Shown: positions 349-60,601 of the stretch, in pieces
Layout: every line of letters begins with the position of its first letter
Position numbering within the stretch: the first letter of the stretch is position 1
Virus record (IMG/VR): IMGVR_UViG_3300005466_000024
Location: 1-64,000 of that record
Direction: 5' to 3' (one strand)
Length of the DNA: 64,000 nucleotides
Source: a virus
The notes under the pieces: model-generated
The model's input: the letters and a program-made list of their open reading frames with translations, nothing else
What the model was told of the DNA's origin: nothing
Database searches by the model: none
Program-made: the position numbers and the translations under genes

Positions 349-349
349 G

Positions 350-1840: not shown

Positions 1841-1896
1841 GGTCCGACGGTACCCCTTGTCGCTGTAGGACCGCTATCTGACTCGCCGAAACTACC

Positions 1897-3365: not shown

Positions 3366-3715
3366 GGTGCGTCTTTCGCCCGTTGCACGATCTCCACGAA
3401 GTCATCCAACAGCAGGACTACGACATCCAGCGGCGACTCGCCGGACGGTTCCAGCCGAATCGGCATGACGAACCGCCGACCCGTGCCGGCCGCGGTGCGG
3501 GCCCACTGCCGCAGCAGCTTGGCTTGCAGTGGGAACGAGCCGTGCGTCGTGTGCTTGCACTCGGCCTGCAGCGGGAACCGGTTGTCGATGAGGTCGTTGT
3601 CGACGCAGTCACCGGGGGAGTGCCAGCGCGCCCCGGAGTTGGGGGTGGCGTCCAGGCCCAGGAGGGCCTGGACATCCTGCTCGAAGCGCTTCCAGGCCGC
3701 GATCCCGCCCTTCAC
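3362..3715 (-). CDS. Second Hjc-like PD-(D/E)XK resolvase/nuclease
   Basis: 117 aa; AWKRFEQDV...TPNSGA...PGD...LQAECKHT pattern; coupled to recA by overlap. Confidence 0.6.
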   Translation of the reverse strand: MKGGIAAWKRFEQDVQALLGLDATPNSGARWHSPGDCVDNDLIDNRFPLQAECKHTTHGSFPLQAKLLRQWARTAAGTGRRFVMPIRLEPSGESPLDVVVLLLDDFVEIVQRAKDAP

Positions 3716-4869: not shown

Positions 4870-7800
4870 ACTTTCCTTTTCGATGCCAGGTTGTCCAGGC
4901 GGACCAGCTCCACTAGCCGTGCCCCTCGCCCGTCCTTGCGGCACTCACACGCCACGGGCGCACCGAGGCTGATCATGCCCTTGACCTGGGTCCACTCGCG
5001 GGGGAAGGCGGTGAACTCGAAGTCCGATTCGGCAAACCTTACCGTCACGAACGCCATTTCCTGGCCAGCCTGGAACCCACTCTTGATGGCGTGTCGCGTC
5101 ACCTTGGTCACCTGCCCGGCGATGGTCAACCGGGCCCCGGTGTCGGCGTCATCGATGTCGGCGGGGTCGTAGATCACCTCTCCCTCGAGCAAGGACAGGT
5201 AGGACTCCAGCGGGTCCACTGTGATGTGCCGACCACACAGCTCCTGTTCGATCCCGTAGATGACGGCGGGGTCGGTGAAATCGGGTATCTCGATGTGGCT
5301 CCCCGGCATCGCCAGGCGTCGCTCCACGATCGCCGCCAGTTTCTCGGGATTGGTGCGGGTGCTCTCGGCGAGATCCCGGGTGACCATGTGGTACTCGTAC
5401 TGGCGCAACAGTTCGGCCCGGTCACCGAGGGAATCCAGTGCCCCCACCTTGATGAGGTTGACGATCACGGTCTTGTTGGCACCCTTGCCCGCAGTCGCCA
5501 GGTAGTCCTGCAGGGACCGGTAGGGGCGCCCCGCGACGATGTCGCGGGCGCTCGCCGCGGCGATGCCGCGCAACGCATCGAGTCCGTAGCGGATGGAGTC
5601 GTCGGTGATGGTGAACTTCTGTCCAGACAGGTTCACGTCGGGCGGCAGTACGGCCAGACCCATTCGCCGCGCCTCGCGAATGTACTCGGGGGTGTTGGCG
5701 GGATCGCTGACGAGCAACCCCATCACGAATTCTGCGGCATAGTGGTGCTTGGGCCAGATCTCCCAGTACCCGGTCATCGCATAGCCGGTGGCGTGTGCGT
5801 GGCCGAACGCGTAGCGTCCACTGGCTTCGATCGATGTCCAGATCTTCTCGATGACCTTCAGCGCCGCATCGCGTTGGAAGTCGCCGCCATCGGGTGGGCC
5901 ACCGAAGAGTGCAGTGAACTCGGTGTTGGCCAGACAGCCCGCGGCGAACTCCTCCCACATCGCCTTGATCTTGTCCATGTACTTCTTGCCCAGCGCCTTG
6001 CGCAGGTCGTCGGCCTCGTCGGCGGAGAATCCGGCCAGGTCACGGGAGGCCCGCATCATTTGTTCCTGATAGACCAGCACACCGTGGGTGTCGGCGGTGA
6101 TCGGCTCCATCAGCGGATGGTCGTAGGTGGTGGATTCCACGCCGGCCCGACGCCGCAGGAACCTTTCGGTCAGTCCCGCGTCCTTGACGCCGGGCCGGAT
6201 GATGCTGATCAGCAGCGCCAGGTCCTCGATGCTGGTGGGCTTGAGTTCGATGGCGGTGCGGGTGGTCCCCGCAGTCAGCTGGAAGATGCCGGTGGTGCGC
6301 CCGCGATGGATCTGGGGCCACACCGCCGGGTCGTGTTCGGGTAATGCCTCCCAGTCGATGTCGACTCCGTGTCGTTCCCGGATCAGGCGTTTCGTTACCT
6401 CGAGAGTGTCGAGGTTGCGCAGGCCGAGCAGGTCGAACTTCACCCCACCCAGCTCTTCGACCTCGAGCATGTCGAACTGGGTGGTGACGACCTCTTTCGC
6501 GGTTCCGTGGTGACGGGTGCGCATTGGGATCCGTCCCAGCAACGGATCCTTGTTCATCAACACCCCGGAGGGGTGCTTGCCGGACTGGCGGGCGATACCC
6601 ACCAGGAGGCCCAGCAGGCGGAACAGTTCGGCGTGTTTGTGCGCCCATGGGGCCAGATCGCCGCCCTTCTCCTGCAGGATCTCGTCCCACCGGACCTCGT
6701 CGCCCTTGTCGCCGGCATGCTCGCCGCGCGCCTCCATGGCACTGGCGGCCAACTTGGTGGCCTTGTCGATGATCTTGCTCATCGCTTCGACGTCCGCTTG
6801 TGGCACCTTCTGGCGCCCCATCGCACGGGCCAGGTCGCGCAACATGGCCTTGGGGGCGTTGCGGGTGATGGTGCCGATGGTGCAGACGTGGTCGTGGCCC
6901 CAGCGCGCTCCCAGGTACTTCACCATGTCACCCAGCCTCGACTGGGGGAAGTCGATGTCGATGTCGGGTGGGCTCTTCCGGGCGGGGGTCAGGAACCGCT
7001 CGAACAGCAGGCCATAACGGATCGGGTCGATGGCGGTGATACCGAGCAGCCAGGTCACCAGGGAACCACCTGCCGACCCGCGGCCGGGGCCGACCCCGAT
7101 CGGCTCTTTGTGTGGCCCCTTGACGTACTGTGCCCAGCTGCCGGTTTTGGCGGCCCTCACCATGTCTTCATCGACACAGAAGTAGCCGCAGTTATGGACC
7201 CGAATTCCCTCGGCGACATACGTCGGATCACCATCAACCGACAAGTTGTAAACCAACCCGCTGTAGTGACGACTCGTCACACCTTTGACCCGCACCCACC
7301 ACCTGTCACCATCACGACGGGCACCATATGGAGCCTTCTTGCGCTCTTCCTGCCAACAAACCCGATACTTCTGCCGATCCAGCCAACGGTAGGAGATTTC
7401 CGTCGCCCATATCCCCGTGCGCAGAAGAATCTGTCGTAACTGAAACGCCAGTACCGGATTGCAGGTGTCGACGATCTTCCTGCCGTTCGCTTTCGTTGTG
7501 CCGTCCCCGTCGAACCACCCATCGACAAACGCCCGCAACGACTCCGATGACAACGACATCAGCCATGGGCTGAGTCGTTTCTCGTAGACCCCCGTCCCAA
7601 CCACCTCTGACAGGAATAACGCCAACGGATGGTTTGTGACTATGTGCAGCAAGCCCTTGTGGTTTGGGGCTCCCGCCCATGTCTTAGCGTATGTACGCAG
7701 CTCGCCCATCCCCAATTCCCGCAGACAGGAGGCTAGTCGATCACGAATCGCCATTTCGTCACGATGAAGGGTCCACCCCACCTGACCTGGACATGTCGAT

Positions 7801-9428
7801 GAATCGGGGTCATACAGATGACCCTCTGCCACCCACAGACCGACCACGTACATGAGTGCTGGGGACGGCATCAATTTGTCGGGTGCCCAACCCTTGGATC
7901 GACGCGCGCTTTTCCACCGACCGAGGACCACCTTGGTGAACCCCTCGCCTGATGGCGATACCCACCATCCCCGATCTAACGCCAATCCGAGCAAATCGAA
8001 CGGGCTGTCGACGCCCTCAGGCGCATCAACAGCCACCTCATCGCCGCGCCTAAACCTCCCCAGTTCCTGCCATCCACTAGGAGTCAGGACAGGATGTTCT
8101 TTGGTGCCAGACAGTTTGCGATACGAACCTGCGACAGCTATTTCCGCCAACTGCTCCTCTACGGGCCTGCTGGACACTCGCGCAACTCGCTGCTGTCCCG
8201 CCCTGGTCTCCACGTAGTCACCCGGCCGGATCGTCCCTATCGCCCGCAGTCCCTGCGCTGTGCTGACCTGCGTGCCCGGTGGAAAACAGAAACCCTTGTC
8301 GATGATGAGCTGGCATTCGCTCTCCGCGCGCTGTAGGTAGCGTTCCTGATCGAGGCCACCATCGATCACCTTGCGTTTGAATCCTTCGGTGACGAGGTCG
8401 AGGAATTTCTCGATGTCGTCGTGGTCGTTGCCGGTGAAGCTGGGCATTCCCAGGGTGGGCCGGATTTCGGCCACGCAGGTCTGCGCGATCTGCCACGACA
8501 TGTCTATCGCCCGTTCCACGTGCGGGGCGTCGATGCCGTGCCGGCCCATCCAGTAGTAGAGCTCCTGGTCGCCCATCAGGTGGTCGGCCTTCTGGCCCTC
8601 GGGCAGCTGGTCACCCTTGTTGCCGGTGTTGATCCGCCACACCATGTCCTTGAGTTCCCACTCCTCCGGACGGGTGTGGTGGGCGTCGTTGACGACGACC
8701 TGCGGGATCCCCAGCTCGGTCGCCAACCGCAGCTTGGCCCGATTGAACTCGGATGCCAGCGCATTGGCTTGTGCGGTGCACATTTTGGTGTCGAGGAACT
8801 TGATCTCGTCGTCGGTGCGGGGGTTCATGAACTGCCAGGTGTGCAACTCGGAGAAAAACCGGTCACCGAACACGGCCAACAGCCGCCCGTAGATCTGGCG
8901 GGCCTCCTCCTCATCGCCGCGCACCAGGATCGCTCGCGCCAATTCCGTGAGCAAGCACCCGTCCGAAGCCCACAGGCCGTCGCGATAGTGCCGTAGCAGC
9001 TCGAGGTCGGCCAGTGGCTTCTTGTGGAAGTACTTGCGCTGGTAGGCCACCGACGACAGCGCCCACAGGTTGGCCAGTCCTTGCTGGGATGCGGCGATCA
9101 ACGTGATGTGGGAATTGGGGACTTCCTTTTTCTGCGCAATGTCATCGACGTAATATCCTTCCATCCCGAATATCGGGTGGACACCCTCGGCAATACAGGC
9201 TTTCTGGAATGCATAGTGTTGATTGCACTCACCGTGGTCGGACAAACCAATGGCCGCTTGCCCCAATTCCCGGGCACGCTTGGCGATCGAGGTGACGGGG
9301 GAGTACCCGTCCAGAAAGCTGCCCTCACTATGCACGTGATAGTTGACGAAATGGCTGGCCAGGGAAGCTTCTTCGCGCCTGCGCAGTTCCAGCGCAGCAT
9401 TGAAGTCGATGATTCTGGCATCGCCCAT
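4866..9428 (-). CDS. dnaE: DNA polymerase III alpha subunit (DnaE) containing an intein
   Basis: PHP motifs HVHSEGSFLDG, SDHG, NDAHH; GPGRGSAGGS, FERFL, PDIDIDF catalytic motif, KFDLLGL, C-terminal OB fold (MAFVTV). Confidence 0.95.
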   Translation of the reverse strand: MGDARIIDFNAALELRRREEASLASHFVNYHVHSEGSFLDGYSPVTSIAKRARELGQAAIGLSDHGECNQHYAFQKACIAEGVHPIFGMEGYYVDDIAQKKEVPNSHITLIAASQQGLANLWALSSVAYQRKYFHKKPLADLELLRHYRDGLWASDGCLLTELARAILVRGDEEEARQIYGRLLAVFGDRFFSELHTWQFMNPRTDDEIKFLDTKMCTAQANALASEFNRAKLRLATELGIPQVVVNDAHHTRPEEWELKDMVWRINTGNKGDQLPEGQKADHLMGDQELYYWMGRHGIDAPHVERAIDMSWQIAQTCVAEIRPTLGMPSFTGNDHDDIEKFLDLVTEGFKRKVIDGGLDQERYLQRAESECQLIIDKGFCFPPGTQVSTAQGLRAIGTIRPGDYVETRAGQQRVARVSSRPVEEQLAEIAVAGSYRKLSGTKEHPVLTPSGWQELGRFRRGDEVAVDAPEGVDSPFDLLGLALDRGWWVSPSGEGFTKVVLGRWKSARRSKGWAPDKLMPSPALMYVVGLWVAEGHLYDPDSSTCPGQVGWTLHRDEMAIRDRLASCLRELGMGELRTYAKTWAGAPNHKGLLHIVTNHPLALFLSEVVGTGVYEKRLSPWLMSLSSESLRAFVDGWFDGDGTTKANGRKIVDTCNPVLAFQLRQILLRTGIWATEISYRWLDRQKYRVCWQEERKKAPYGARRDGDRWWVRVKGVTSRHYSGLVYNLSVDGDPTYVAEGIRVHNCGYFCVDEDMVRAAKTGSWAQYVKGPHKEPIGVGPGRGSAGGSLVTWLLGITAIDPIRYGLLFERFLTPARKSPPDIDIDFPQSRLGDMVKYLGARWGHDHVCTIGTITRNAPKAMLRDLARAMGRQKVPQADVEAMSKIIDKATKLAASAMEARGEHAGDKGDEVRWDEILQEKGGDLAPWAHKHAELFRLLGLLVGIARQSGKHPSGVLMNKDPLLGRIPMRTRHHGTAKEVVTTQFDMLEVEELGGVKFDLLGLRNLDTLEVTKRLIRERHGVDIDWEALPEHDPAVWPQIHRGRTTGIFQLTAGTTRTAIELKPTSIEDLALLISIIRPGVKDAGLTERFLRRRAGVESTTYDHPLMEPITADTHGVLVYQEQMMRASRDLAGFSADEADDLRKALGKKYMDKIKAMWEEFAAGCLANTEFTALFGGPPDGGDFQRDAALKVIEKIWTSIEASGRYAFGHAHATGYAMTGYWEIWPKHHYAAEFVMGLLVSDPANTPEYIREARRMGLAVLPPDVNLSGQKFTITDDSIRYGLDALRGIAAASARDIVAGRPYRSLQDYLATAGKGANKTVIVNLIKVGALDSLGDRAELLRQYEYHMVTRDLAESTRTNPEKLAAIVERRLAMPGSHIEIPDFTDPAVIYGIEQELCGRHITVDPLESYLSLLEGEVIYDPADIDDADTGARLTIAGQVTKVTRHAIKSGFQAGQEMAFVTVRFAESDFEFTAFPREWTQVKGMISLGAPVACECRKDGRGARLVELVRLDNLASKRKV
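7191..8288 (-). mobile_element. Intein with LAGLIDADG homing endonuclease (366 aa) in DnaE
   Basis: Starts CFPPGTQV, ends VYNLSVDGDPTYVAEGIRVHN followed by extein Cys; LAGLIDADG blocks YVVGLWVAEGH and FVDGWFDGDG; one hand-counted 60-mer is 55% GC, below flanks. Confidence 0.93.
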
Positions 9429-27649: not shown

Positions 27650-28996
27650 TCACCTTACGAATATGTGCGGATCCCTCAGGTTGAACGTGTTGGGGCGTTG
27701 CCGACGCCGGGTGAGCGAGGTGCTGACGGTGGAGTCCCGGGCCGGCGCGGTGGTGGCTACCGCGTAGTCGGGGTAGAAGGTGAACATCACCTGGCTGGGG
27801 GCGCTCACCGGCAATTTGTAGTGGAAGGCATCGGCGATGCCGCCGATGCCGAGGATCCGTTCGATCTCGTGGGTGATCCACTCGAGCTGGGAATCCCACG
27901 CGAAGTGGTAGGGGGTGCCGTCGGGGTTCAGGGCCGGCGCCTGGGCCGGATGAATGCCGTACTTGCCGCCGGGGAAATTGCCGGGGCAGTCGCACAGCTC
28001 GTAGGTTTTCCATTCGGTGTACTGCTCGAAGGTCTGGTACACCGAATAGTTCTGTTCGGTCTTCACCGTGCCGTCTGGTTGCAGGGTGCCGTAGGTCACG
28101 GCATCGATCTGCGAGCGCGGATCCCCATACAGGTAGTACTGGCTGTACTCCTGGGTAGCGTTGAACGCCGCCGTGGGCGCCACCTGTGGTGTGGTCTGCG
28201 CGCGGAACAGCCATTGCTCACTGGGCAGTAGGTCGATCGGCAATAGCTGCGGCGGCGGCATCTGGGAGAGCACCGGGGTGGCGGTGACCAGTCGTTCCAC
28301 CTGGAAGTAGGTGGAGTCCGCTGTCGCGGTGGCTACCGGGACCGGTGTCTGTACCGCCAGCCCCTGCGTGTCCACGGTGATGATGGCGTCGATCGGGCTC
28401 ATCCGGTCGAGCATGTCGCGCAGCAGCCGCATCTCGATGGGCTCGAGGGTTTCCTTGTGTGGTTTGACGACGATTTCGTTACGCGCGCTGACCGGCGCGC
28501 GCCCCAGGTTCGCGCCGAGGCCCCAGTTGTCGGTGTAGCGCCATATCTCGAACAGGTCGCAGTCCACCGCGATGGCGGCGTTGACGCAGGTGCGGATCCC
28601 GGTGGGGGTGCCGCCCTGCGAGCAGGCGATGAAGTACTGCTTGACCCGGTCGCGGTACCAGGCGTCCTTGACGCGGACTTCGTCCCACTGATCGCTGGTG
28701 AGCAGGTCGACGGTCGGGTTGTAGGGGTAGGACTCGGCGGGACTGCGTGACAGGAAGCCGATCTGCCCGAAGATGTAGTCGAGGTCGTGGAAGTACAGTG
28801 TCTCCATCGCCCCGGCCATCCGCGCCAACAGGATCTCGTTGATCAGCGCGCCGGCCCCGGTGGTGCCGCACAAGGCGTCCACGATCTTGTAGAGGATGGT
28901 GCCCGCCGTGCCGGTGTACACCGAGGGGTCGCAGTGCGCGAGGCGCTGCGTCGTCGACATCGGCGGGATGAGCGGGAAGGGGCTTTGATCAGCCAC
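27650..28996 (-). CDS. Baseplate wedge protein (P2 gpI-like position)
   Basis: Follows baseplate J; DLDYIFG...GGTPTGIRTCV...NEIVVKP pattern typical of wedge subunits. Confidence 0.6.
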   Translation of the reverse strand: MADQSPFPLIPPMSTTQRLAHCDPSVYTGTAGTILYKIVDALCGTTGAGALINEILLARMAGAMETLYFHDLDYIFGQIGFLSRSPAESYPYNPTVDLLTSDQWDEVRVKDAWYRDRVKQYFIACSQGGTPTGIRTCVNAAIAVDCDLFEIWRYTDNWGLGANLGRAPVSARNEIVVKPHKETLEPIEMRLLRDMLDRMSPIDAIITVDTQGLAVQTPVPVATATADSTYFQVERLVTATPVLSQMPPPQLLPIDLLPSEQWLFRAQTTPQVAPTAAFNATQEYSQYYLYGDPRSQIDAVTYGTLQPDGTVKTEQNYSVYQTFEQYTEWKTYELCDCPGNFPGGKYGIHPAQAPALNPDGTPYHFAWDSQLEWITHEIERILGIGGIADAFHYKLPVSAPSQVMFTFYPDYAVATTAPARDSTVSTSLTRRRQRPNTFNLRDPHIFVR

Positions 28997-29378
28997 GACT
29001 TATCCCCCCTGCCGCCGCGGGACGGTAAATGTACTCATCACCCTCCCAGTCATCGGGATCGGCGACGACATGGCTGTGGGGCACACTCCGTTGCAGCACC
29101 CTGCCCGTTCCGGCGTAGTCCTTCGCGAGCTGTTTGTTCGTGGTGACGAAATCGCCCGGAACGATCCCCTTCTGACCCCACGGTGCGCCCCGATAAATGA
29201 CGACCGGCTCGTCGGCCTGGACGCCACGCAGTTTGTCCAGCGTGAGTAGGTGCGGACTGATCGGGCCCGTCCGCGAGGATGGGTCGTAGTCGACGAATAG
29301 GCCACCCGTCGGATTGACGCTTTCCAATGTTGGATGCCACGCGGCCACTCGTTCGCGGGCCGTCAGGATCCTGCGCAT
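28989..29378 (-). CDS. ADP-ribosyltransferase-fold protein with MRRILTARERVAAWH leader (129 aa)
   Basis: Start ATG 29378 (TGATG overlap with baseplate J); VVIYRG...PGDFVTTNKQLAKDY...EGDEYIY resembles R-S/T-E ART strands. Confidence 0.55.
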   Translation of the reverse strand: MRRILTARERVAAWHPTLESVNPTGGLFVDYDPSSRTGPISPHLLTLDKLRGVQADEPVVIYRGAPWGQKGIVPGDFVTTNKQLAKDYAGTGRVLQRSVPHSHVVADPDDWEGDEYIYRPAAAGGISRG

Positions 29379-41969: not shown

Positions 41970-43538
41970 TCAGATTCGCCGTGCATATCGGGGGGACAGT
42001 GGGACGGGCTGTGCGCGTTCCTCGACGACCGCACGCATGAATCCGGCCTCTCCGGATGCCACTGAATACCGTTGGGCCAGCCGGGAGTTGGTACGCCCGG
42101 CACCCTGCCCGATCCAGCGCCGGGTCTTCCAGTTGCGTCCGGGCCGCAGATGCCACAGATGACAGATGTCGTTGGAGGTCACCTCGTGCAAAGCGTATAG
42201 CGTGTCCAATGATTTGAGGAACGAGATGTCCTCCCCGCCCCATCCCGAAAAGCGGGGGTCCATTCCGCCGGTCAGCCAGAATGCTTCGGCGGGCATCATC
42301 TGTGCCAGTGCCCCATACAGGTAGCCGTAATTCACGGTGGCCGTTCCGCCGGGTTCCAGCCACTCCTGCCGGGGTGGGGAGGGGACGGCGTACGGCTGGG
42401 CCGGGTCGGTGGTCAGTAAGTCGATGGTGTACTCCTCGGAGAGGCGGTAGAGCCGCCGGTAGGGGACGTACCAGAGTTTGCGCCCGGCGGCCAGGGCCTC
42501 CTCGATGCTGTCCGCGCATTGCTGGATGACATGGGCATCGAGGTAGGCGTCGGCGTCGAGGATGAGCAGGATCCTCCCCCGGGCGCGTTCAGCGGCCCAG
42601 TTCACTGATCGGCACTTGCTGTAGGGCCAGGAGCCGTCGTGGCCGACGATGATCTCCGCATGGGGTAGTTGCTGCTGCCAGTGCTGCGACAGCCATGCCC
42701 ATACTCGTTCGCGGTGCTCGGTGTCCTCCTTGTCGTGCCGGTAGGGTACGAGCACCGACAGTTGCGGGCGCCGGCCCTTCTTGCGGGGCGGCAGGATCGT
42801 TGGGGGTTCGATGGTGGCGCGTGGTGGTGTCGTGCCGGTCGCGGTGGCCAGCGCGGCGCGCAGTTGTTCGCGGACCTCCTCGACGCGCGCGTAGGGGGCA
42901 CGCCAGAACTCCCCGAAGCTGGGGTCGGTGTCGTAGATCGAGGCGTAGTCGCGGTACTTGAAGTCGCCGCCCTCCTTGTCCGCACTGGGGAACAGTTCGG
43001 CGCGGCGTGGGATGCCGAAGGAGTCCGCGACGACGAGGCCGTGCAGGCTGGAGGACACGACTCGTTTACAGCTGGCGATCTCGGTGATCACCTCCCCCGG
43101 GGGTCGGCGCACGTCGATGATGTGGCCGTAGGGGAAGCGTTGCGCGAGTTTCTGGTCGCTCCAGTGTGGGATCACGCCGAGGTCGTATTTGGCCACGGTC
43201 TGCGGCACCCACTTGGAAGCGAGTAGGCCGGGATCCCCGAGTACCACCGAGGTGGGGACACCGCGCACGCGGGCGGCCGACAGCCGCCCGCGCAGTGCGA
43301 TCACGTTGGCCGCCGACAGGTCGACCTCGGAGTTCTCCCGCAGTTTGCCGGCTCCGCACACGGTGCCCGTCCAGCCCGGCGGGAGGTGTTCGAGGACCGA
43401 GCCGACGAGTACCAGGTCGGCCTGCGCGGGCGGCGCCCAGGTGCACTCGACGCCGAGGCGGGCCAGGATCCAGTTGTTCAGCTCGTCACCGAAGTTGTGC
43501 AGCGGAGGCCGCCGCCACCCGTAAACAGCACGGGGCAT
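41970..43538 (-). CDS. Polysaccharide pyruvyltransferase fused to GT2-type glycosyltransferase
   Basis: N: NFGDELN, GSVL, ALRGRLS, GDPGLL, GVIPHW, SSSLHGLVVADSFGIP. C: SVLVPYR, WAAERA, ILDADAY (DxD), GGMDPRFSGWGGED, HLWH. Confidence 0.85.
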   Translation of the reverse strand: MPRAVYGWRRPPLHNFGDELNNWILARLGVECTWAPPAQADLVLVGSVLEHLPPGWTGTVCGAGKLRENSEVDLSAANVIALRGRLSAARVRGVPTSVVLGDPGLLASKWVPQTVAKYDLGVIPHWSDQKLAQRFPYGHIIDVRRPPGEVITEIASCKRVVSSSLHGLVVADSFGIPRRAELFPSADKEGGDFKYRDYASIYDTDPSFGEFWRAPYARVEEVREQLRAALATATGTTPPRATIEPPTILPPRKKGRRPQLSVLVPYRHDKEDTEHRERVWAWLSQHWQQQLPHAEIIVGHDGSWPYSKCRSVNWAAERARGRILLILDADAYLDAHVIQQCADSIEEALAAGRKLWYVPYRRLYRLSEEYTIDLLTTDPAQPYAVPSPPRQEWLEPGGTATVNYGYLYGALAQMMPAEAFWLTGGMDPRFSGWGGEDISFLKSLDTLYALHEVTSNDICHLWHLRPGRNWKTRRWIGQGAGRTNSRLAQRYSVASGEAGFMRAVVEERAQPVPLSPRYARRI

Positions 43539-43681
43539 GTCACCCCCTTCAAAGATGGGCTTGAAGCCTCACCCCTTTAGGGGGCCGGAACTCGCCTCCT
43601 GTTATGGCTTGCGGTACCCCTTGCACAGGAATCCCATAGCTAACTCCCGTGGGTCTCTTTTGGAAGTCCTAGCAAACCTCT

Positions 43682-50185: not shown

Positions 50186-51358
50186 CTATGCTGCGACGGG
50201 TGGTCGCCAGTCGGCCAGGTTGCCGCTGGCGGCGCGGCTCTTGTTGCAGGACTGGCAGCTGGGCACCAGGTTCTCCCGGCAGTTGTTCGAGGGGTCGCCG
50301 TCGATGTGGTCGACGTGGATGCCCGTGATGCCACCCCAGGTCAGGGTCGCCTCCCCGCCGTGCCAGTGGCACGCGTGGGGACCGGGCCCGATGGCATCGT
50401 AGAGCACCATACGGTGCTCTGGAATCTGGCCGGACTTGTCGGCTATGGGATGATTCGGCCGATAGAGGTAGATGTAGGCATACCGATACTTCTTTTGGCG
50501 ATGCAATGCCCGCAAGCAGGTTCGACATTGCCGCCATCCTGTGTTGGGATTGACGTACGTGTTCTCGGCCGTATATTCGTGGCCCTGTGCGCATTGTGTT
50601 TTGGCGGCATTACCGCCGTCCGTCCCACCACGATAACCATTGATGGCCTGGGTCACCGCCTCTAGGTGCCGCGGGTTCACGCACCGTTTGTTCTTGCAGA
50701 GGTGATCGAGCACCATCCCCTTCGGAATCGGACCAACGATCTGCTCCCACACGAAGCGATGCGCCATGTAGCGCTTGTCTGCCCCGTCCTGGATGAACCC
50801 GTGGCCCTGCCTCTTGTAGATCGGGCCGGTCCAGTTCCAGCACGGCGTGTCGAAGCCCTCAGGGATCGCGCCGACGACATAGCTGCCTTTCCATCGCTCG
50901 GCGGCTGGCGTGTGGTCCTTCAACGCCACCGTCACGTCGCCGTGCCGACGCATCCTTGCCCGATGCTTCTCGCAGTACAGCTTGCTGGTCTTGCGCTCCT
51001 CGCTGCACCCCTCGACTGTGCAGAATCGTCCCGGCTGCGGCCCCGGATGTGGTGTGACGACGGTGGGATCGCCGTAGGCCTTCCACCGCTGGTAGTGCTT
51101 GGTGCAATAGCCCTTTGCCCGCGCTTCGCGCGGGCAGGGCTCATCCTCACCCTCTTCGATAACCCCGCAGAACACCTTGACACTCTCGGTGGGTTCCAGA
51201 GGTGACCAGCCGGCTACCACCTTGCTGATCAAGGCCTGGCTGACACCGAACTGTGCGGCGAGCGCCGTCTGTCGCGTCCCCTGGGCATACAGTCGACGAA
51301 CTTCGTCGGTTTGCTCTCGACTTAGCTTGGCACGGCTCCGACGCCCCTCAGTCTCCAT
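50186..51358 (-). CDS. HNH homing endonuclease with two HNH domains and N-terminal HTH
   Basis: HTH (QTALAAQFGVSQALIS), two Cys/His YC-KH repeats, HNH1 (AHR...LDHLCKNKRCVNPRHL), HNH2 (EHR...VDHIDGDPSNNCRENL...CQSCN). Confidence 0.85.
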   Translation of the reverse strand: METEGRRSRAKLSREQTDEVRRLYAQGTRQTALAAQFGVSQALISKVVAGWSPLEPTESVKVFCGVIEEGEDEPCPREARAKGYCTKHYQRWKAYGDPTVVTPHPGPQPGRFCTVEGCSEERKTSKLYCEKHRARMRRHGDVTVALKDHTPAAERWKGSYVVGAIPEGFDTPCWNWTGPIYKRQGHGFIQDGADKRYMAHRFVWEQIVGPIPKGMVLDHLCKNKRCVNPRHLEAVTQAINGYRGGTDGGNAAKTQCAQGHEYTAENTYVNPNTGWRQCRTCLRALHRQKKYRYAYIYLYRPNHPIADKSGQIPEHRMVLYDAIGPGPHACHWHGGEATLTWGGITGIHVDHIDGDPSNNCRENLVPSCQSCNKSRAASGNLADWRPPVAA

Positions 51359-52828: not shown

Positions 52829-55800
52829 TCAGAACATCGCGAAGAACTGTCCGGACAGCGCGAGTACCCTTTCGTCGGCCAGGGCCGACAGGGTACCGGT
52901 ACCCGACAGTGTGCCCGCGCTGGCGGCGCCGAGGCTGGCGACGGCCACCAGGGTGCCCGTGCCGCCGATGACGGTGACACAGACGTACCTGGGGATGGGG
53001 ATGGCGGTCAGGGTGCCCGCGCCGAGGACGGTTGCCGCGGTGGTGGTGATCGCCGCTACGGTGGCGCTGAGCCCGCCGGTGCCGGACAGGTCGGCCGATT
53101 GGGCAACGGAGGCGGCCGTCGAGGCCGTCAGTGTGCCGTGGCCCTGCCATTGGCCCGTTTGCAGGATTCTGGCGACCGTGTTCGCCGTCAGTTGACCGGT
53201 TCCGTCCAGCGCAGCGGTTTCCGGGAATTTCGCGCTCGCGGACGCAGTCAGGGTGCCCGTGCCGGTGGTGGCTGCTGTGGTGTGGATGGAGAACATCCGG
53301 GCGGTGCCCGTCAGGGCACCGTGTCCGGTGAATTGGCCGGTGGTTCCCGAGGAACCCAGGGTGGCTGCTGTCAGGGCACCGTTGCCGCGCAGCACGGCCG
53401 ACCTGGTGAACTGGGCCGACCCGGTGGCGGTGAGCCTGCCGGTGCCGGACAGCGATGCGGGCGCAGTGATGCTGTAGAGCGTGGCGGTGGCGGTCAGTGC
53501 GCCCCGGCCGCTCAGGGTCGCTGGGCGCAGGTACCGTTCGTTCCCGGTGGCCGTCAGTTTTCCGGTGCCGGAGAGCGTCGCGGCAACCCGGATCTGGAAC
53601 ATCGTGGCCGTGGCGGTCAGTGTGCCGCGGCCCCCGAGTGCTGCGGTCCTGGCGAGCCGGGCGAACGCGGTGGCCGTCAGCTCCCCGTCGCCGCCGAATG
53701 CTGCGGTGGCCTGGATCTGGAACATTTGTGCGGTCGCGGTCAACGCGCCGTGGCCTGCGGGGGTGCACACCCGGTTGAATCCCGACTGGACCAGGTTCGT
53801 GAACGTGCCGCGACCGCTCAGTGGGGCAGCGAGGGTGAATTTGGTGGCGGCGGCCGTTACCGTCAGGGTGCCGTGTCCGGTGACGGCTGCGGTGACGGCG
53901 AACTTGCTCGAGGTCGTCGCCGTGAGTGTTCCGGTGCCCTGCAACGTGACAGTTGCGCGGATCTGGTACATCCGTGCGGTCGCGGTCAGCTGGCCGGTGC
54001 CGGGCAGTCCTGCCGTCCGGGAGTATTTCGGGTAGGCCGCTGCGGTTAGGGCACCGTTGCCGCGCAGCGGTGCGGTGATCGTGAATCGGGTGGCTGCTGC
54101 CGCCGCCGTTAGGGCACCGTTGCCGTTCGGTGCGAAGGTTCGCGTGAAGCTGGCATGGGCCGTCGCGGTCAGTCGTCCGGTTCCCGGGAGCACCGCCGCC
54201 GACTGGATCCGATACATGACGGCGGTCGCCGTGAACTGTCCGGTGCCCTTGATCCCCGCTGCGGCGGGGATCTTGGCGTAGACCGTTGCCGTGAGTCTGC
54301 CGATGCCGGTCAGGGGTGCTGTGACCAGGAATTTGGCGGTACCGGTCGCGGTCAACGTCCCGCGTCCGGCCAGCGCCGCCGCCAGCGTGAACTGTTTGGC
54401 CACCGCTGTCGCGGTCAGCCGGCCCGTGCCGGCGAACATGGCGGCGACCGCGAATCGGGCGGTGGCCGTGGCGGTCAGCGTGCCGCGGCCGGTCAGTGGT
54501 GCGTTCAGTGTGAACTTGGTGGCGGCGGCGGTGACCGTCAACCGGCCCGTACCGGCCAGCGTGGCAGTCGCAGCGAACTTGGCGGTAGCGGTCGCGGTGA
54601 GCCGCCCGGTGCCCTTCAACGGCGCGGTAAGGGTGAACTTGGTGGCGGTGGCGGCGGCAGCGAGTCGCCCGATACCGGTGGTGGGTGCGGTGCTGGCGAA
54701 CTTCGCGAACGCCGTGGAGGTGAGTCGCCCCGTCCCCTTCAGTGGCGTGGTGAGGACGAACTGTGTGGCTGCTGCCGTAGCGGTCAGCGTGCCTCGACCG
54801 TTCAACGCGGCAGTACGGGCGAATTTCGGTGCGGTGGTTGCCGACAGGATCCCTGTTCCTCGCAGGTTGCCGGTGACCGCAAAGATCTGTTTGGTGGTGG
54901 CGCTCAGTACGCCGTGACCGGTCGGGTTGCCGGTCGCGAATTCGCGTTCGATGACGGTCGCGGTGAGTCTGCCGGTGCCTGCCAGGGATGCGGCGACCGC
55001 GAATCGGGCGGTAGCCGTGGCGGTGAGGATTCCGCGCCCGCCCAGTGCTGCCGTGAGTGTGAACCTGGTGGCCGCCGCGGTCGCGGTCAATCGGCCCGTA
55101 CCGGCCAGTGCGGCGGTCCTGGTGAACTTGGCGGTGGCCGTAGCGGTCAGTGCACCGGTACCCCTCAGTGGTGCGCTGAAAGTGAATTTGGTGGCCACCG
55201 CGGTCGCGGTGAGCCTGCCGGTGCCCTTCAGGGCAACGGTCGCAGCGAACTTGGCGGTACCGGTTGCGGTGAGCCGCCCGGTGCCGGACAGCGGCGCGGT
55301 AAGGGTGAACTTGGTGGCCGTGGCGGTGGCCGTCAACCGGCCCGTACCAGCCAGCGTGGCGGTCGCCGCGAACTTGGCCAGTGTGGTGGCAGTCAAGCCG
55401 CCGGTGCCGGTGAAGCTCGCGGTGCGTGATGCGGGCCCCCCGGCCGACGCCGTCGCGGTGAGCTGGCCGTGGCCGACCATGTCGCCCGCGAACATCCACT
55501 GCATGAGCGTGTATGCGGCGCCGCCCGTGCCGCCCGCAGTGGTGGCAGAGGTATTGCCGCCACCACCGCCTGCGCCAGCTCCTTGGGCGCCGCCATTGCC
55601 ACCTGTGCCTCCTGTGCCGCCGTTGCGGCCGCCACCACCGCCACCGCCGCCACCGGGATTGCCGGAGCTGGCCGTGGTACCGGCACCACCATTGGTTCCG
55701 CTGGTGGTACCGCCGGTGCCACCGCCCGCCACGGAGGACGCGCCACCGTTCGCGCCGGCGCCCGCGGTACCGAGCTGCTGTCCACCACCGCCGCCACCAC

Positions 55801-56287
55801 CGGCGGCTTGCTGCCCGGTGGCGGCGGACGGCACGGTCGGCAAACTACTGCTGCCGCCGAAACCGGCGGTACCGGAGACCCCGGTTGTCGTGGTGGCGCC
55901 ACTGATGCCACTGGCCGTCGCCGTGCCCCCAGTGCCCGCCGTACCGGCCACATTGGAGGCGCCGTTGCCGCCCTTGTTGCCGCCGTTGGCGGTGATGGTC
56001 ACCGACCCGCTGGTGAATCGCGACAACGCGCCGTTGGTTTGCGACGCGCCGCCGCTGCCCACCGTCACCGAGTACGTGGACCCGAGCGTCGACACCGACT
56101 GCCAGCCGGTGTCGACGTATCCGGCGCCGCCGCCACCGCCACCACCGCAGCAGTTGCCGACACCGAGGTTGATGCCCGTACCGCCACCCCCGCCGCCGCC
56201 GTACGCGGTGAATCGCCATTGCAGGGCCCCCGTAGGAACCGCGACGTTGCTGCGAGTGACGTTGACTTCGCTGGTGGTGACCGTCAT
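52829..56287 (-). CDS. Long repeat fibre protein (1152 aa): Gly-rich head plus about 45 alternating 19/20-aa repeats
   Basis: Consensus (A/T)KFxxTAxLxGxGxLTATA; Thr/Ala-rich; within the virion operon. Confidence 0.8.
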   Translation of the reverse strand: MTVTTSEVNVTRSNVAVPTGALQWRFTAYGGGGGGGTGINLGVGNCCGGGGGGGAGYVDTGWQSVSTLGSTYSVTVGSGGASQTNGALSRFTSGSVTITANGGNKGGNGASNVAGTAGTGGTATASGISGATTTTGVSGTAGFGGSSSLPTVPSAATGQQAAGGGGGGGQQLGTAGAGANGGASSVAGGGTGGTTSGTNGGAGTTASSGNPGGGGGGGGGRNGGTGGTGGNGGAQGAGAGGGGGNTSATTAGGTGGAAYTLMQWMFAGDMVGHGQLTATASAGGPASRTASFTGTGGLTATTLAKFAATATLAGTGRLTATATATKFTLTAPLSGTGRLTATGTAKFAATVALKGTGRLTATAVATKFTFSAPLRGTGALTATATAKFTRTAALAGTGRLTATAAATRFTLTAALGGRGILTATATARFAVAASLAGTGRLTATVIEREFATGNPTGHGVLSATTKQIFAVTGNLRGTGILSATTAPKFARTAALNGRGTLTATAAATQFVLTTPLKGTGRLTSTAFAKFASTAPTTGIGRLAAAATATKFTLTAPLKGTGRLTATATAKFAATATLAGTGRLTVTAAATKFTLNAPLTGRGTLTATATARFAVAAMFAGTGRLTATAVAKQFTLAAALAGRGTLTATGTAKFLVTAPLTGIGRLTATVYAKIPAAAGIKGTGQFTATAVMYRIQSAAVLPGTGRLTATAHASFTRTFAPNGNGALTAAAAATRFTITAPLRGNGALTAAAYPKYSRTAGLPGTGQLTATARMYQIRATVTLQGTGTLTATTSSKFAVTAAVTGHGTLTVTAAATKFTLAAPLSGRGTFTNLVQSGFNRVCTPAGHGALTATAQMFQIQATAAFGGDGELTATAFARLARTAALGGRGTLTATATMFQIRVAATLSGTGKLTATGNERYLRPATLSGRGALTATATLYSITAPASLSGTGRLTATGSAQFTRSAVLRGNGALTAATLGSSGTTGQFTGHGALTGTARMFSIHTTAATTGTGTLTASASAKFPETAALDGTGQLTANTVARILQTGQWQGHGTLTASTAASVAQSADLSGTGGLSATVAAITTTAATVLGAGTLTAIPIPRYVCVTVIGGTGTLVAVASLGAASAGTLSGTGTLSALADERVLALSGQFFAMF

Positions 56288-56793: not shown

Positions 56794-57633
56794 CTAGACC
56801 AGTTCGGCCCTTCCTGCCACCGGCTGCCCGAATGTGACCACCACCGTGTCGGGGGCCGGGTAGGACACCGGTGCCTCCACCCCTTCTCCGTTCACGATCA
56901 GGGCCACCGACGGGTAGTGGTCGAGGGGGTGCACGATGATCCACGGGTCGGCGGGGGTGGGCTGCTCGAAGGTGTAGCTGTCCGGCTCGGTGGCCCCCGC
57001 CGGTACCAGTACCACCCGCTGATCGGGCGGCACGACGACGACTGGGCCGGTGATGTTCACGGGTGTGCTGAAGTCCACCCCGAGCACCGGGTACGAGCAG
57101 ATCGGCAGGGTGGGGGCCAGTTTGCTGATGATGGCGCGCTGACCGATGACGTCCCAGCGTTCCTGCCCGAACCGGGTGCCGGTGCGCAGGCTGTCGCGGG
57201 TGACGGCCTGCACCCCGTAGAACCCCTCGAGTTCGGTGGCCCGCCCATTGGCGTCCCACTGCCGTACCCGGATGATGAAGTCGTGTTCGACGAGCAGCGG
57301 GTACCACTCGAACTGCGCTTCGCGGGAATCGGCCGCCCATATGCCCTGTTTGAGGAACTGCTCGGAGACGATGTGGTCGGCGAACAGGCCGTGGACCCGG
57401 CGCACATCCTTGATCGGCGGGTACATGGTGGTGCCGTAGCAGACCGAACATTCCCCGTCGGTGCTGGAGTACACGTCATCGTTACAGGCCGGGCAGCGCG
57501 GCGTGTCCTTGTCGATCTCGGGACGGGCCATGGACAGCAGTACGCACTGCTCGCCGGCCATCACCAGGGAGTCACGCACGTCCTGGCGGGTCGTCCGAAT
57601 ACAATAATCCTCAACCGATTTGATGGCGGTCAT
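56794..57633 (-). CDS. Head closure/neck protein with CxxC...CxxC insert (279 aa)
   Basis: Start ATG 57633 (TGATG overlap); CPAC...CSVCYGT; C-term WIIVHPLDHYPSV domain. Confidence 0.6.
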   Translation of the reverse strand: MTAIKSVEDYCIRTTRQDVRDSLVMAGEQCVLLSMARPEIDKDTPRCPACNDDVYSSTDGECSVCYGTTMYPPIKDVRRVHGLFADHIVSEQFLKQGIWAADSREAQFEWYPLLVEHDFIIRVRQWDANGRATELEGFYGVQAVTRDSLRTGTRFGQERWDVIGQRAIISKLAPTLPICSYPVLGVDFSTPVNITGPVVVVPPDQRVVLVPAGATEPDSYTFEQPTPADPWIIVHPLDHYPSVALIVNGEGVEAPVSYPAPDTVVVTFGQPVAGRAELV

Positions 57634-58628
57634 CAGCCCTCCCCCGCCGAGCGGATCTTCTCCACGATGCGGGCTTTGTCGGTCACCCAACCCTCCCGGG
57701 CGTCGCCGTTCCAGGGCCACGGCCCGCGGTGGGGCTCGACCCGGTACAGGAAAGCCTGTCCGTGATCCCTCACGAGGTACTTCATCCAGTCGTCCGAATG
57801 CGTGAGGTCATGCTCGACCCACGTCCAGTGAGCCCGGTTGTCCAATCCGCCGTGGTACGGCGCATCGAGCCATGGCGCCTTGCCCTTGCGGGCGTCCAGT
57901 ACGGTACCGACCGGCAGGTCGTGGAAAGTAGCGTGATACCAGTCCACACCGACCGGGGTCGGGTCCGGGGGGTGGTCGCGGTAGCGTTGCTGCCAGCCAC
58001 GCTCGTCGTAGGCGTCCTGCGGGCCCAGGAAGTGGCCCTCGGACCCCTCGGGGTCGGTGCGATCGTCGAGGAGGAAGCCGGGTTCGCGCCACACGTCGGG
58101 GTCGCGGGGTGCGGCTACTCGGTGCGCGTGCCACGCGGCGACCCTCTCCCCGGCGATCGGAATTTCCAGCCAATCGTCGGGATGCTGCCGACGTATCCGA
58201 ATCGACTGGGGATTGACCCCATCCTTGCCCCTGAATCGGTAGTACTGACCCATCCATGGCTCGGCAGCGCTCGTATCACCGTCACCGGAAACAATCACCT
58301 GGTAGTGGGCCTTGGGATCCACGTTATTAGGGCCGACACCATAGGTGAGCTTATGGGTCGAGAACCTCTCGGCAGATTTGGGATCGGGAGTCCACCACTC
58401 CCCTAATCCCTTAGTTCCCAAATGGTTGAGTAGGTTCGGAGCCAAGGACAGATCCGACTTCCCGCCAAGAGCCGACTCCAATTGAGCAACGAGGTTGGGG
58501 GGCATATCTTCTCGCCGCAAAGCAATACCGCGATGCAAACGAGTAGGTGGACCACCATCCGGAACGAGTTGAGACATCCCCTGATGCCACACCGCCACCC
58601 TCTCGCGGGCCGTGAGGATGCGTCTCAT
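57633..58628 (-). CDS. Two-domain ART-fold protein with MRRILTARERVAVWH leader and internal GERVAAWH repeat (331 aa)
   Basis: Domain 1: LHRG...GEWWTPDPKSAERF. Domain 2: WYHAT-LPVGTVL...FLYRVEP...VTDKARIV, resembling the Arr rifampin ART. Start ATG 58628 overlaps upstream stop. Confidence 0.55.
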   Translation of the reverse strand: MRRILTARERVAVWHQGMSQLVPDGGPPTRLHRGIALRREDMPPNLVAQLESALGGKSDLSLAPNLLNHLGTKGLGEWWTPDPKSAERFSTHKLTYGVGPNNVDPKAHYQVIVSGDGDTSAAEPWMGQYYRFRGKDGVNPQSIRIRRQHPDDWLEIPIAGERVAAWHAHRVAAPRDPDVWREPGFLLDDRTDPEGSEGHFLGPQDAYDERGWQQRYRDHPPDPTPVGVDWYHATFHDLPVGTVLDARKGKAPWLDAPYHGGLDNRAHWTWVEHDLTHSDDWMKYLVRDHGQAFLYRVEPHRGPWPWNGDAREGWVTDKARIVEKIRSAGEG

Positions 58629-59605
58629 CGGGGCCACTGCGATCCCCAGCTGATGGCCGGTGCCGCCGGGTAGAACCGCCACGCGCGGACAGCCGATGCG
58701 TAAGTTCCGCTGACGAACAGACCACGGGCGCCGCCGCCGTAGATGCCGCCGGCCACCAGCAGTGAGCCGCGTCCCATGCCGAGCAGTTTGCGCTTGGCCA
58801 TCTTGACCATCTTGACCCACTCCGGATATTCCTGGGCCAGGATTTGCGCCCACCGCTGCGAGTAGGCGGTGCGGTCGGTGTAGGTGACGTTCATGTTGGG
58901 GCGGGCCGGGATTTCGACGTAGGAGTCGCGCAGATGCCGGATCACCTCCAGGTAGGTGCCGACCACCTCGAGGCCCGCGAAGCTCGACGGTGGCGGGTTG
59001 GTGAGGTTCCAGTCCATGACGGGGAAGCCGGTGACGCTCATCCGGGTGGTGGCGATGCCCATCAGTTGGCTGATGCGTTCGCTGTCGAAGTGGGTTTGGA
59101 ACTCGTCCATCAGGTGGGGGCCACCCTCGGCGCTGTCGTAGAGATCGCCGAACATCCAGTTGACCTGCTCGACGACGAGCTTGTGCGCGTCGTCGAGGGT
59201 GTCGTAGATCGGCATCTGGTTGAGCACCTGCAGGTGGTCCAGGAAGGTCAGCAGCGTGCCGTTGACCTGGTAGGTCCATTGGGCGGTGAGCACGCCGCGC
59301 TGTCCGGTGAACTGGGGGCCGATCGGCATGTCGTACATGCCGGTGTCGACCCGGTTGATGCCGTCGGTGGTGTCGAGTACCAGGGTGCCCAGTGGGTCGT
59401 TGGTGGGTTGTACCTCCAGGGTGGGGTCCAGGTAGTACAGCTGGACGCGCAGGGTGCCGGGGTCGGCGTCCACCGCGGTGCCGTCGGGTTTGCGGATGTT
59501 CAGGGCGATGTATCCGTACCCGTTTTGGGATACGAATTTCCGCACCACGGATTGATCTTTGATCTTGGGAGAAAACACACCGATCCCAGACGGCTCAATT
59601 GCCAT
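58625..59605 (-). CDS. Neck/head-tail adaptor protein (326 aa)
   Basis: Ig-like N-terminus plus helical adaptor-like C-terminus (YSQRWAQIL...KRKLL); position upstream of head closure. Confidence 0.6.
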   Translation of the reverse strand: MAIEPSGIGVFSPKIKDQSVVRKFVSQNGYGYIALNIRKPDGTAVDADPGTLRVQLYYLDPTLEVQPTNDPLGTLVLDTTDGINRVDTGMYDMPIGPQFTGQRGVLTAQWTYQVNGTLLTFLDHLQVLNQMPIYDTLDDAHKLVVEQVNWMFGDLYDSAEGGPHLMDEFQTHFDSERISQLMGIATTRMSVTGFPVMDWNLTNPPPSSFAGLEVVGTYLEVIRHLRDSYVEIPARPNMNVTYTDRTAYSQRWAQILAQEYPEWVKMVKMAKRKLLGMGRGSLLVAGGIYGGGARGLFVSGTYASAVRAWRFYPAAPAISWGSQWPR

Positions 59606-59626
59606 GTCGAATCACCGGCCTACTTG

Positions 59627-60601
59627 TCACGGGCACAGGAACACCAATTCCAGGTGGTTGATCTGCTTCTCGGCAGAACTGGTGTCGTACCACAGCCAGG
59701 ACGGGTTGGAGCCGTTGTGCTTGGTGGTCAGCCGCAGGACGTCGTTGGCCTGGAAGCGGTACCAGAAGTTGATGTTGTTGCTCTGGGCGAAACCGGGGGT
59801 GTAGGAGAAGCCGCGCACGAATTCCCAGTCGTTGCGGGCCACGTCGGTGCCGTTGACGGTGATCCCGATCATCGAGTGGTCGTGGAAGGTGCGGGCGGGA
59901 TCCCAGTGGATGCGGGCCTGCAGGTGGTAGAGCCCCGGTTCGTCGATGACGATGTCGGTGTTGTTGACGGTGAAGTCCACCCGCGGGAAGAACAGTCTTT
60001 CCAGCAGGTTGGTGAACCAGCAGGTGTATCGGGTGTTGACCGGAACCTGCTGCACGGCCCGCGACTCTGCCCGCAGAATCGGCACGCTGGTGAGCGGTAC
60101 CAGCTGCCAGAACAGTCCGGTGGCCCCGGGCGGGTCCATCCACATCCTGGTGGCCAGGGTGTCGGTTTCGAAGATCAGCATGCCGGGGAACGGGCTGGCG
60201 GGACGGGTGGTGGATGTGCAGATGATGTAGGGGCGGTGCAGGATGTCGGGGCGGGTGGCGTTCCAGTCCAGTTGCAGATCCCCGGGCGCGGCCTGGTTGG
60301 AGTTGCGCCCAAGGGTGTGGTGCAGCGCGCCTTGCCCGGTGTCGGTGTCGGGGGATTGGTGGGTGTTGGCCTGCGCCAGTTTGGCGGTGGGCCACAGCCC
60401 CAGCCCGGAGGGGTCGGTGCCGGAGTGGTCGTGGGCCAGCGGGGCGGTGTGGGTCTCCAGTGCCATGACCGCCGCGCCGATGTCCTCGTGGCTTTCGTCG
60501 TGGTTGCGGTCGGAGTCGCCGGCCTCCGACAGTGAGGTGAACTCCGGCGCGCTCGGGGTGCTGAAGGTGTCGATCCCCGAACCGGGATACACGATGCCCA
60601 T
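59627..60601 (-). CDS. Virion structural protein (324 aa)
   Basis: AHDHSG, GALHHTLG...QAAPGD, TRPASPFPGMLIFETDT motifs typical of actinophage fibre/collar proteins; C1q/TNF-like C-terminal beta domain. Confidence 0.65.
   Translation of the reverse strand: MGIVYPGSGIDTFSTPSAPEFTSLSEAGDSDRNHDESHEDIGAAVMALETHTAPLAHDHSGTDPSGLGLWPTAKLAQANTHQSPDTDTGQGALHHTLGRNSNQAAPGDLQLDWNATRPDILHRPYIICTSTTRPASPFPGMLIFETDTLATRMWMDPPGATGLFWQLVPLTSVPILRAESRAVQQVPVNTRYTCWFTNLLERLFFPRVDFTVNNTDIVIDEPGLYHLQARIHWDPARTFHDHSMIGITVNGTDVARNDWEFVRGFSYTPGFAQSNNINFWYRFQANDVLRLTTKHNGSNPSWLWYDTSSAEKQINHLELVFLCP

Follow-up and report, generated by a model that had tools for sequence, protein, structure and literature searches.

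A leader-tagged gene with two ADP-ribosyltransferase-fold modules in a putative mycobacteriophage: a candidate virion-delivered effector

Introduction

The question raised by this locus was why two small enzyme-like domains of unlike base composition were joined in one phage polypeptide, with a copy of the same short peptide before each of them. The gene concerned was located at 57633..58628 (minus strand) of the window, i.e., the whole 64,000-nt stretch of DNA analyzed, which was the first 64 kb of the 180,705-bp IMG/VR virus record IMGVR_UViG_3300005466_000024. It was a single open reading frame (ORF) of 331 codons plus stop, and it was composed of a leader, an ADP-ribosyltransferase (ART)-like module 1, a junction, and an Arr-like module 2. 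The gene was considered moderately likely to encode a virion-delivered, leader-tagged two-module effector of the polyvalent-protein kind.

Polyvalent proteins contain several effector domains, among which ARTs are the commonest enzymes and are often present in multiple copies beside GNATs (Iyer et al. 2017; PMC5512222). The genes of polyvalent proteins were placed in the same study among late virion genes, and delivery together with the DNA was predicted (PMC5512222).

Structure of the two modules

Both halves of the protein had an ART fold in structure models, which upheld the two-domain ART reading of an earlier note made from the letters of this DNA. Module 2 (residues 198-331; 57636..58037, minus strand) was assigned as an Arr/Tpt1-like minimal ART from its model plus fold and profile matches. 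It was modelled with a homologue alignment, and residues 200-331 had a predicted local distance difference test score (pLDDT) of 85-98. The three best PDB matches of module 2 in Foldseek were the Arr structures 2hw2, 9iaf, and 9iba (probability 0.96-1.0); re-alignment gave Z 8.8 for 9iaf (root-mean-square deviation 2.9 over 92 residues), Z 8.2 for 9iba, and Z 7.7 for 2hw2, compared to Z 7.0-7.3 for Tpt1 and below 6 for toxin ARTs. The identity to Arr was 15-17%.

A profile of 25 short members of the module-2 family, searched against 177,635 PDB sequences, matched Arr only, and weakly (E 0.26), with alignment of the H-x-T and G-x-x-L-x-P strands. In hhalign, the module-2 profile matched the genuine Arr of a Mycobacterium ulcerans plasmid with 87% probability over 70 columns; the His of Arr lay opposite His232 and its Tyr opposite Trp270, and the two Y-x-V-E-P strands were aligned. 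His232 was nearly invariant in the module-2 family, and it was aligned to the Arr His by hmmsearch as well as hhalign; in Arr-ms, the NAD-site His is His19 (strand 1), and the other residues compared were Tyr49 (strand 2) and Asp84. The Pfam family Arr-ms (PF12120) was reached by 4 of the 48 aligned module-2 relatives (best E 4.2e-5), and it had no match in this protein (E up to 1) or in a six-frame search of the genome (E up to 10). By the curated Pfam test, module 2 was a remote Arr relative standing outside Arr-ms. The Arr pattern seen in this domain by the earlier note therefore stood with respect to fold matches, profile, and hhalign, but it did not extend to Arr-ms membership or to the Tyr, which was replaced by Trp. 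Module 2 and Arr shared the size of a small ART (about 130 residues) and aligned H-x-T, G-x-x-L-x-P, h-aromatic-h, and Y-x-V-E-P strands; unlike Arr, module 2 was fused behind a leader and another ART, and its family was a repeated module in phage polyproteins.

Module 1 (residues 17-157; 58158..58580, minus strand) was assigned as a low-GC ART-fold domain of R-S-E type from its model, fold matches, family alignment, and base composition. It was not resolved in the whole-protein model, and it gave pLDDT 82 when modelled alone. All of the 50 best re-aligned PDB chains were ARTs (Z 4.6-6.8), including Tpt1 (6.8), pertussis toxin S1 (6.1), LT-IIB (6.0), the Rhs toxin TreX (6.0), and cholera toxin (5.5), as well as PARPs. 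Arg33 was located on strand 1, and R-G was nearly invariant in the family; in the cholera-toxin match, model positions 12-146 lay on chain positions 1-146, and an ungapped start would put Arg33 on Arg7 (only the end points being reported). W-W-T (78-80) formed a strand and then a helix at the S-T-S position, with one hydroxyl residue only. The catalytic [Q/E]-x-E expected of R-S-E enzymes before strand 5 was not found in module 1 by family alignment: the canonical catalytic acid was replaced by Gln128, and the three nearest module-1 relatives had G-Q or G-K at this acidic site. Glu123, five residues upstream of the lost acid, was kept in the module-1 subfamily. Module 1 was accordingly modelled as an ART fold of cholera/pertussis-toxin (R-S-E) type with an altered active site.

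Pfam (E up to 1; polyvalent-protein ART models included) gave no match to the whole protein, nor did PHROGs, and phmmer against PDB sequences gave chance matches only. DNA and tblastn searches with the gene and protein across 50,697 phage records gave no match, which reflected a limit of sensitivity since gp68 of Mycobacterium phage Phrappuccino was homologous in pairwise comparison.

Leader peptide and junction

The leader (residues 1-16; 58581..58628, minus strand; 88% G+C at third codon positions [GC3]) was recognized as a shared N-terminus, with a helix predicted at residues 7-18. Its core motif lay at residues 8-15 and again at residues 160-167; a degenerate DNA pattern of the motif matched three sites in the window versus 0.02 expected, and the third site was the start of another gene at 29378. 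A scan of the whole genome (181 kb) gave exactly four N-terminal copies plus one internal copy, and the four N-terminal copies headed genes with unrelated cargo. Besides the two-module gene, these were (i) gene B (28989..29378, minus strand; 129 codons), at whose start the first 26 residues of the two-module protein were found again and which was wedged, with overlapping stops and starts, with a baseplate wedge gene on one side and a virion structural gene on the other, and (ii) a pair of neighboring genes outside the window, immediately upstream of that for the large terminase (G000 94121-95679, corresponding to L006:6122-7680; minus strand), encoding a Gly/Pro-rich protein of 126 aa and a 393-aa DUF7178 protein (in Gordonia phage Skog, its homologues are annotated as glycosylase). 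The cargo domain of gene B had a homologue (64% identity to gene B) fused to a module-2 homologue in protein P0003. The DNA copies of the leader were 63-81% identical with many synonymous differences, which pointed to selection on the peptide rather than the DNA.

The Rizal genome had exactly two copies of a leader variant, at the starts of gp101 (DUF7178) and gp102, and variants were also found at the starts of Phrappuccino gp67 and gp68. The all-against-library homologue search gave 86 clusters; 25 of 82 homologue clusters started with the leader (in two types) at residues 2-5, and it was never internal there. In its full form, the leader comprised an approximately 12-residue helix and then W-R-x-A-[A/M]-P.

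The start of the gene had been placed otherwise in the public gene call P0002 (290 aa), which began at Met42 and thereby cut off the leader and Arg33 on the first conserved strand; the long start of the 331-codon ORF was favored because the same N-terminus was found again on other genes.

The junction (residues 158-175; 58104..58157, minus strand) was composed of a partial second leader copy and R-V-A-A-P, together matching the complete leader residue for residue, and it was followed by a linker (residues 176-197; 58038..58103, minus strand) that was disordered by model; residues 159-197 had pLDDT 30-47 in the whole-protein model. The peptide R-x-A-[A/M]-[P/W] was present at most module borders of long homologues, with up to seven occurrences per protein. 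In L005 (an uncultured 150-kb phage, IMGVR_UViG_3300042907_001596), two adjacent giant ORFs of 1069 aa and about 1311 aa at 174-7312 combined four GNATs and several module-2-like ARTs with helical units in repeat, each of these parted by R-x-A-M-P. The standalone relative P0010 ended exactly at the start of the internal leader copy.

Several further candidates were rejected. The cargo of gene B had no detectable relation to module 1 on comparison, and the claim of gene B as an ART was dropped since it rested on one weak Atlas match (template modeling score, TM, 0.50). An R-L-A-M-P match within the DNA polymerase III alpha gene was judged as chance. The motif did not qualify as a Shine-Dalgarno element or internal start, because its three copies differed synonymously and that of gene B was not purine-rich.

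Base composition

The contrast between a low-GC domain 1 and a high-GC domain 2, which had drawn attention to this gene, was borne out by measurement: residues 17-157 had 56.3% GC and 58.9% GC3, within the lowest 0.4% of 423-bp windows across the 64 kb, and residues 176-331 had 68.8% GC and 86.5% GC3. Both leader copies had 83-88% GC3, and the neighboring genes had about 87%. In 15-codon steps, GC3 was 87% over codons 1-15, fell to 33% over codons 16-30, and was 80% again from codon 151; the low-GC block was thus bounded by both motif copies, and the domain boundaries coincided with RERVAVWH (residues 8-15) and GERVAAWH (residues 160-167) as had been noted earlier. The lowest-GC stretch of the window was a different one (43441-43680; 53-55% in 423-bp windows), being below module 1.

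The module-1 subfamily had low GC3 in three phages (59%, 58%, and 53%), and its neighbors there had 68-87%. In L013, a leader of resident high GC3 preceded lower-GC cargo as in this phage, and the same contrast of a high-GC3 leader with a lower-GC Arr-like cargo was displayed by Phrappuccino gp68. This recurrence of a high-GC leader before lower-GC cargo in three phages indirectly favored an exchange breakpoint at or just after the leader.

Genomic context and module shuffling

The two-module gene was flanked by two conserved genes on the same strand: an upstream virion-module gene of phrog_2791 (58625..59605; Rizal gp117-like and Phrappuccino gp66-like) and a downstream gene of phrog_2806 (56794..57636; Rizal gp118-like). 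Its ATG overlapped the upstream stop (ATGA) and its stop overlapped the downstream start (TGATG), which placed the gene in a tightly coupled late operon. The phrog_2791 neighbor had 59% identity to gp66 of Phrappuccino, 45% to gp117 of Bxz1-type cluster C phages (e.g., Rizal), and 47-50% to Gordonia myovirus proteins, and the source was best read as a Bxz1/Phrappuccino-like myovirus of Mycobacteriales. The sequence of this stretch was present in rhizosphere and soil metagenomes, and no RNA run was listed among the sequencing runs containing it.

The region separating the gp117-like gene from the gp118-like gene was a hypervariable slot. In Rizal, it was empty, with gp117 directly adjoining gp118; in Phrappuccino, it contained two separate leader genes, the second of which (gp68) was Arr-like and, by pairwise comparison, consisted of a leader plus a module-2 homologue. 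In L012, it contained a leader plus cytidylyltransferase-like gene and then a gene composed of a leader, a module-1-like ART (hhalign 96%), and a ParB-like domain; in L015, the P0003 fusion of a gene-B-type domain with module 2 was located directly before the gp118 homologue; in L011, an unrelated zinc-ribbon/NUMOD-like gene was present. In L017, P0004 was located two genes beyond the gp118 homologue. Phrappuccino gp67 had no detectable relation to module 1 on comparison. The expectation that relatives would have alternative domains after the leader at the same locus was matched by these differently composed leader-tagged cargoes.

Module shuffling was likewise supported by sequence comparison across the homologues. 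Module 1 was found alone behind the leader (P0008 and P0010) and within long proteins, and module 2 was part of over 60 architectures, with as many as six copies per protein; homologues also carried GNAT and ParB-like domains. The order of module 1 then module 2 was found again in P0072 and P0067, and the reverse order in P0040 and P0064. Close module-2 relatives (52-66% identity) were preceded by a gene-B-type domain in P0003, a zinc-ribbon-like segment in P0004, and a GNAT in P0005, and the module-2 relatives in P0006 and P0012 were preceded by the leader alone. A permanently fixed order of both domains, which the earlier note had named as evidence against cassette exchange, was not what the homologues displayed, each module being found by itself, before or after the other, and joined to different partners. 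At L013:1682-2674, next to the standalone module-1 gene P0008, a large-terminase-like gene with an intein-like insert was seen by eye.

Origin of the two-module form

A related strain, X8 (94-97% identical), diverged exactly at residue 172 (58115), staying in frame across 17 readable bases; it was also distinguished by a skip of 40 nt in the 3'-terminal part of the gene (57636-57677). Module 1 DNA was 73-75% identical to its nearest relatives, and its arrival was consequently not recent.

The proposal in the earlier note that cargo is exchanged by recombination at the leader-coding sequence was sustained in part. It agreed with the varied slot cargo, the shuffled modules, and the native-GC leader before low-GC cargo, but ordinary homologous recombination between leader copies was unlikely since the copies, at 63-81% identity, were too diverged, and contigs, which drop rare variants and are hence uninformative on this point, displayed no deletion joint from one leader to the other. 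The internal copy was explained equally well if two neighboring leader genes, arranged as in Phrappuccino gp67/gp68, had fused, and it was most simply the leader of a once separate downstream gene. A two-step origin of the two-domain form was considered most likely: (i) the lower-GC module 1 would have arrived behind a resident leader and (ii) two adjacent leader genes would have fused, losing a stop codon and about eight codons from the start of the second leader.

Proposed role and alternative explanations

As a virion-delivered effector, the protein would be made late, alongside structural proteins, and its leader would load it into the particle in the manner of the T4 capsid-targeting sequence of internal proteins and Alt. 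Cleavage by a phage protease, at both the leader and the junction, may free two enzymes, which would be injected with the DNA and would use NAD+ to modify host targets. Judging from its sequence distribution, the leader probably marks proteins for particle loading and injection. A wider proposal was put forward tentatively, with less confidence than the delivery of this one protein: leader plus R-x-A-[A/M]-[P/W] might be an undescribed load-and-cut signal of Bxz1-like/Phrappuccino-like actinobacterial myoviruses and of the giant polyvalent proteins of uncultured relatives, behind which any cargo could be plugged.

Several points told against virion delivery of two working enzymes. (i) The leader genes lay in neck, baseplate, and terminase neighborhoods instead of one head module. 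(ii) Pfam S77 and S78 had no match in the genome as prohead proteases, and a literature search gave no virion proteome of this phage, of Bxz1-type phages, or of leader-bearing relatives. (iii) The fold scores of module 1 were middling (all Z below 8), and its acidic site, D-x-D/E-x-E in the wider family (E-K-E in L012), was G-Q here, making transferase activity of module 1 doubtful. (iv) The Arr Tyr position was occupied in the module-2 family by a nearly invariant Trp (Trp270), and the hhalign alignment stopped short of the Arr Asp84 position, at which Asn307 might stand as a guess from spacing. Since both modules departed from canonical catalytic residues, either of them may be inactive or do other chemistry. 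A PHROG "peptidase" gene was present near the terminase-side leader genes, and it matched no Pfam family.

The scatter of leader genes over neck, baseplate, and terminase regions, together with the lack of a recognized prohead protease in the genome and of a virion proteome in the literature search, would also suit a late cytoplasmic, unpackaged enzyme that acts within the producing cell (like T4 ModA/ModB or a counter-defence enzyme) and whose leader serves as a regulatory, stability, or interaction peptide. This explanation was held to be rather unlikely: the leader genes were embedded in, and translationally coupled to, structural operons; the same peptide recurred at the borders of multi-module proteins of a type predicted to be virion-delivered; and a peptide common to unrelated cargo best fits a sorting signal.

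A rifamycin-resistance moron, in which module 2 is a working Arr that shields an infected or lysogenic host by ADP-ribosylation of rifamycins, would account for the Arr structures being the closest solved folds, for the aligned NAD-site His, and for the 4 of 48 relatives touching Arr-ms, and true Arr genes do occur in Microbacterium and Gordonia phages (PMC9503650). It was nonetheless quite improbable, given the absence of an Arr-ms match even at E 1 to 10, the 15-17% identity, the Tyr-to-Trp replacement, and expression with lytic structural genes as indicated by the placement of the gene. The deployment of the module family in phage polyproteins of virion type, with up to six copies per protein beside GNATs, was unlike a drug-resistance gene, and rifamycin modification as the main role of module 2 therefore appeared unlikely from sequence.

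Still less probable was a secreted polymorphic toxin, whose leader would export the ARTs against competitors, e.g., via ESX/type VII components encoded in this record. An EccB gene was present at 350-1840, and a constant N-terminus with changing cargo is reminiscent of polymorphic toxins; however, the leader had no hydrophobic core and no WXG/YxxxD-type signal was seen (by eye only), leader variants were also carried by Rizal and Phrappuccino (ESX genes there not being looked for), and the next gene downstream was a conserved virion gene rather than a small immunity-like gene.

An artefact or decaying fusion (mis-assembly, or a pseudogene with a dead module 1) was scarcely credible despite the lost catalytic acid of module 1 and the junction difference in X8, because an independent 2410-nt contig from another sample spanned 57800-59700 with two differences and the protein cluster of this gene was found on four contigs, which excluded an assembly artefact, and because the frame was open, X8 likewise being in frame over its readable junction bases, and module-1 relatives of 63-70% identity stayed intact in other phages.

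Comparison with described systems

The preferred reading as a virion-delivered effector was compared with systems that share parts of it; polyvalent proteins and capsid-targeted ARTs as such are already known. The gene resembled polyvalent proteins in encoding two distinct ART-fold modules in one phage polypeptide, in having relatives with up to six module-2 copies plus GNAT and ParB-like domains, and in overlapping conserved virion-module genes on both sides; the long relatives fitted the description fully. It differed from them in having two modules only, in containing ARTs missed by every Pfam model, and in a module 2 nearer to Arr than to the H-Y-D ART of PMC5512222. The leader plus R-x-A-M-P junction peptide appeared not to be described in PMC5512222, where the word "linker" was absent and processing was described only via peptidase domains.

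The leader variants in Phrappuccino gp67/gp68 and Rizal gp101/gp102, from cultured M. smegmatis phages, were all on genes annotated as hypothetical; unlike the present case, these were separate genes, and the Rizal cargo (DUF7178 plus an unknown domain) was located in the head-gene region.

In T4, the internal proteins IPI-III and the ART Alt carry a short N-terminal capsid-targeting sequence, which is cut by the gp21 prohead protease. The leader was similar in being a short N-terminal peptide on unrelated late proteins including ARTs (four genes here) with variable cargo loci; in contrast to T4, there was no sequence similarity, the tag recurred between modules, no gp21-like protease was found, and loading and cleavage are proposals made here. 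The MuF polymorphic toxins of temperate phages reportedly use a constant N-terminal part to bring variable C-terminal toxins into the capsid. A constant N-terminal part with variable cargo was shared with MuF toxins, but a MuF domain comprises a few hundred residues rather than the 16-22 of the peptide here, and Pfam/PHROG gave no such domain in this protein. Searchable papers appeared to contain no description of the hypervariable neck slot, of either unannotated ART family, or of the leader/junction peptide of this lineage.

Other features of the window

Four other genes were recorded in the window: (i) a full-length EccB gene (type VII/ESX secretion; PF05108, E 3e-134) at 350-1840 (minus strand), in a record classed as a complete virus; (ii) a gene at 4866-9428 (minus strand) for a 1520-aa DnaE-type DNA polymerase III alpha with an intein, whose Hint, intein splicing, and LAGLIDADG domains were located at residues about 381-746; (iii) an HNH endonuclease gene with an N-terminal helix-turn-helix at 50186-51358 (minus strand), close to tail genes; and (iv) a gene at 52829-56287 (minus strand) for a 1152-aa glycine-rich minor-tail-like protein, composed mostly of several dozen tandem units of about 25 residues of G-T-G-R-L-T-A-T-A type.

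Significance

With this finding, the mycobacteriophage repertoire gains two ART families that lacked annotation, one Arr-like and the other toxin-like with an altered active site, and a public gene call (P0002) that had removed the leader and the first catalytic motif is corrected. Across an actinobacterial myovirus lineage, a single short peptide is found on unrelated enzymes, at the joints of multi-enzyme proteins, and at the onset of cargo of foreign composition. The proposed loading and cleavage are directly testable, since the tag is carried by M. smegmatis phages already in culture, namely Phrappuccino and those of Bxz1 type (e.g., Rizal). Injected phage proteins decide the first minutes of infection, and the rules for loading them are known only for T4, P1, and a few giant phages; if the proposal is true, the tag could offer a means of loading proteins of choice into particles of mycobacteriophages.

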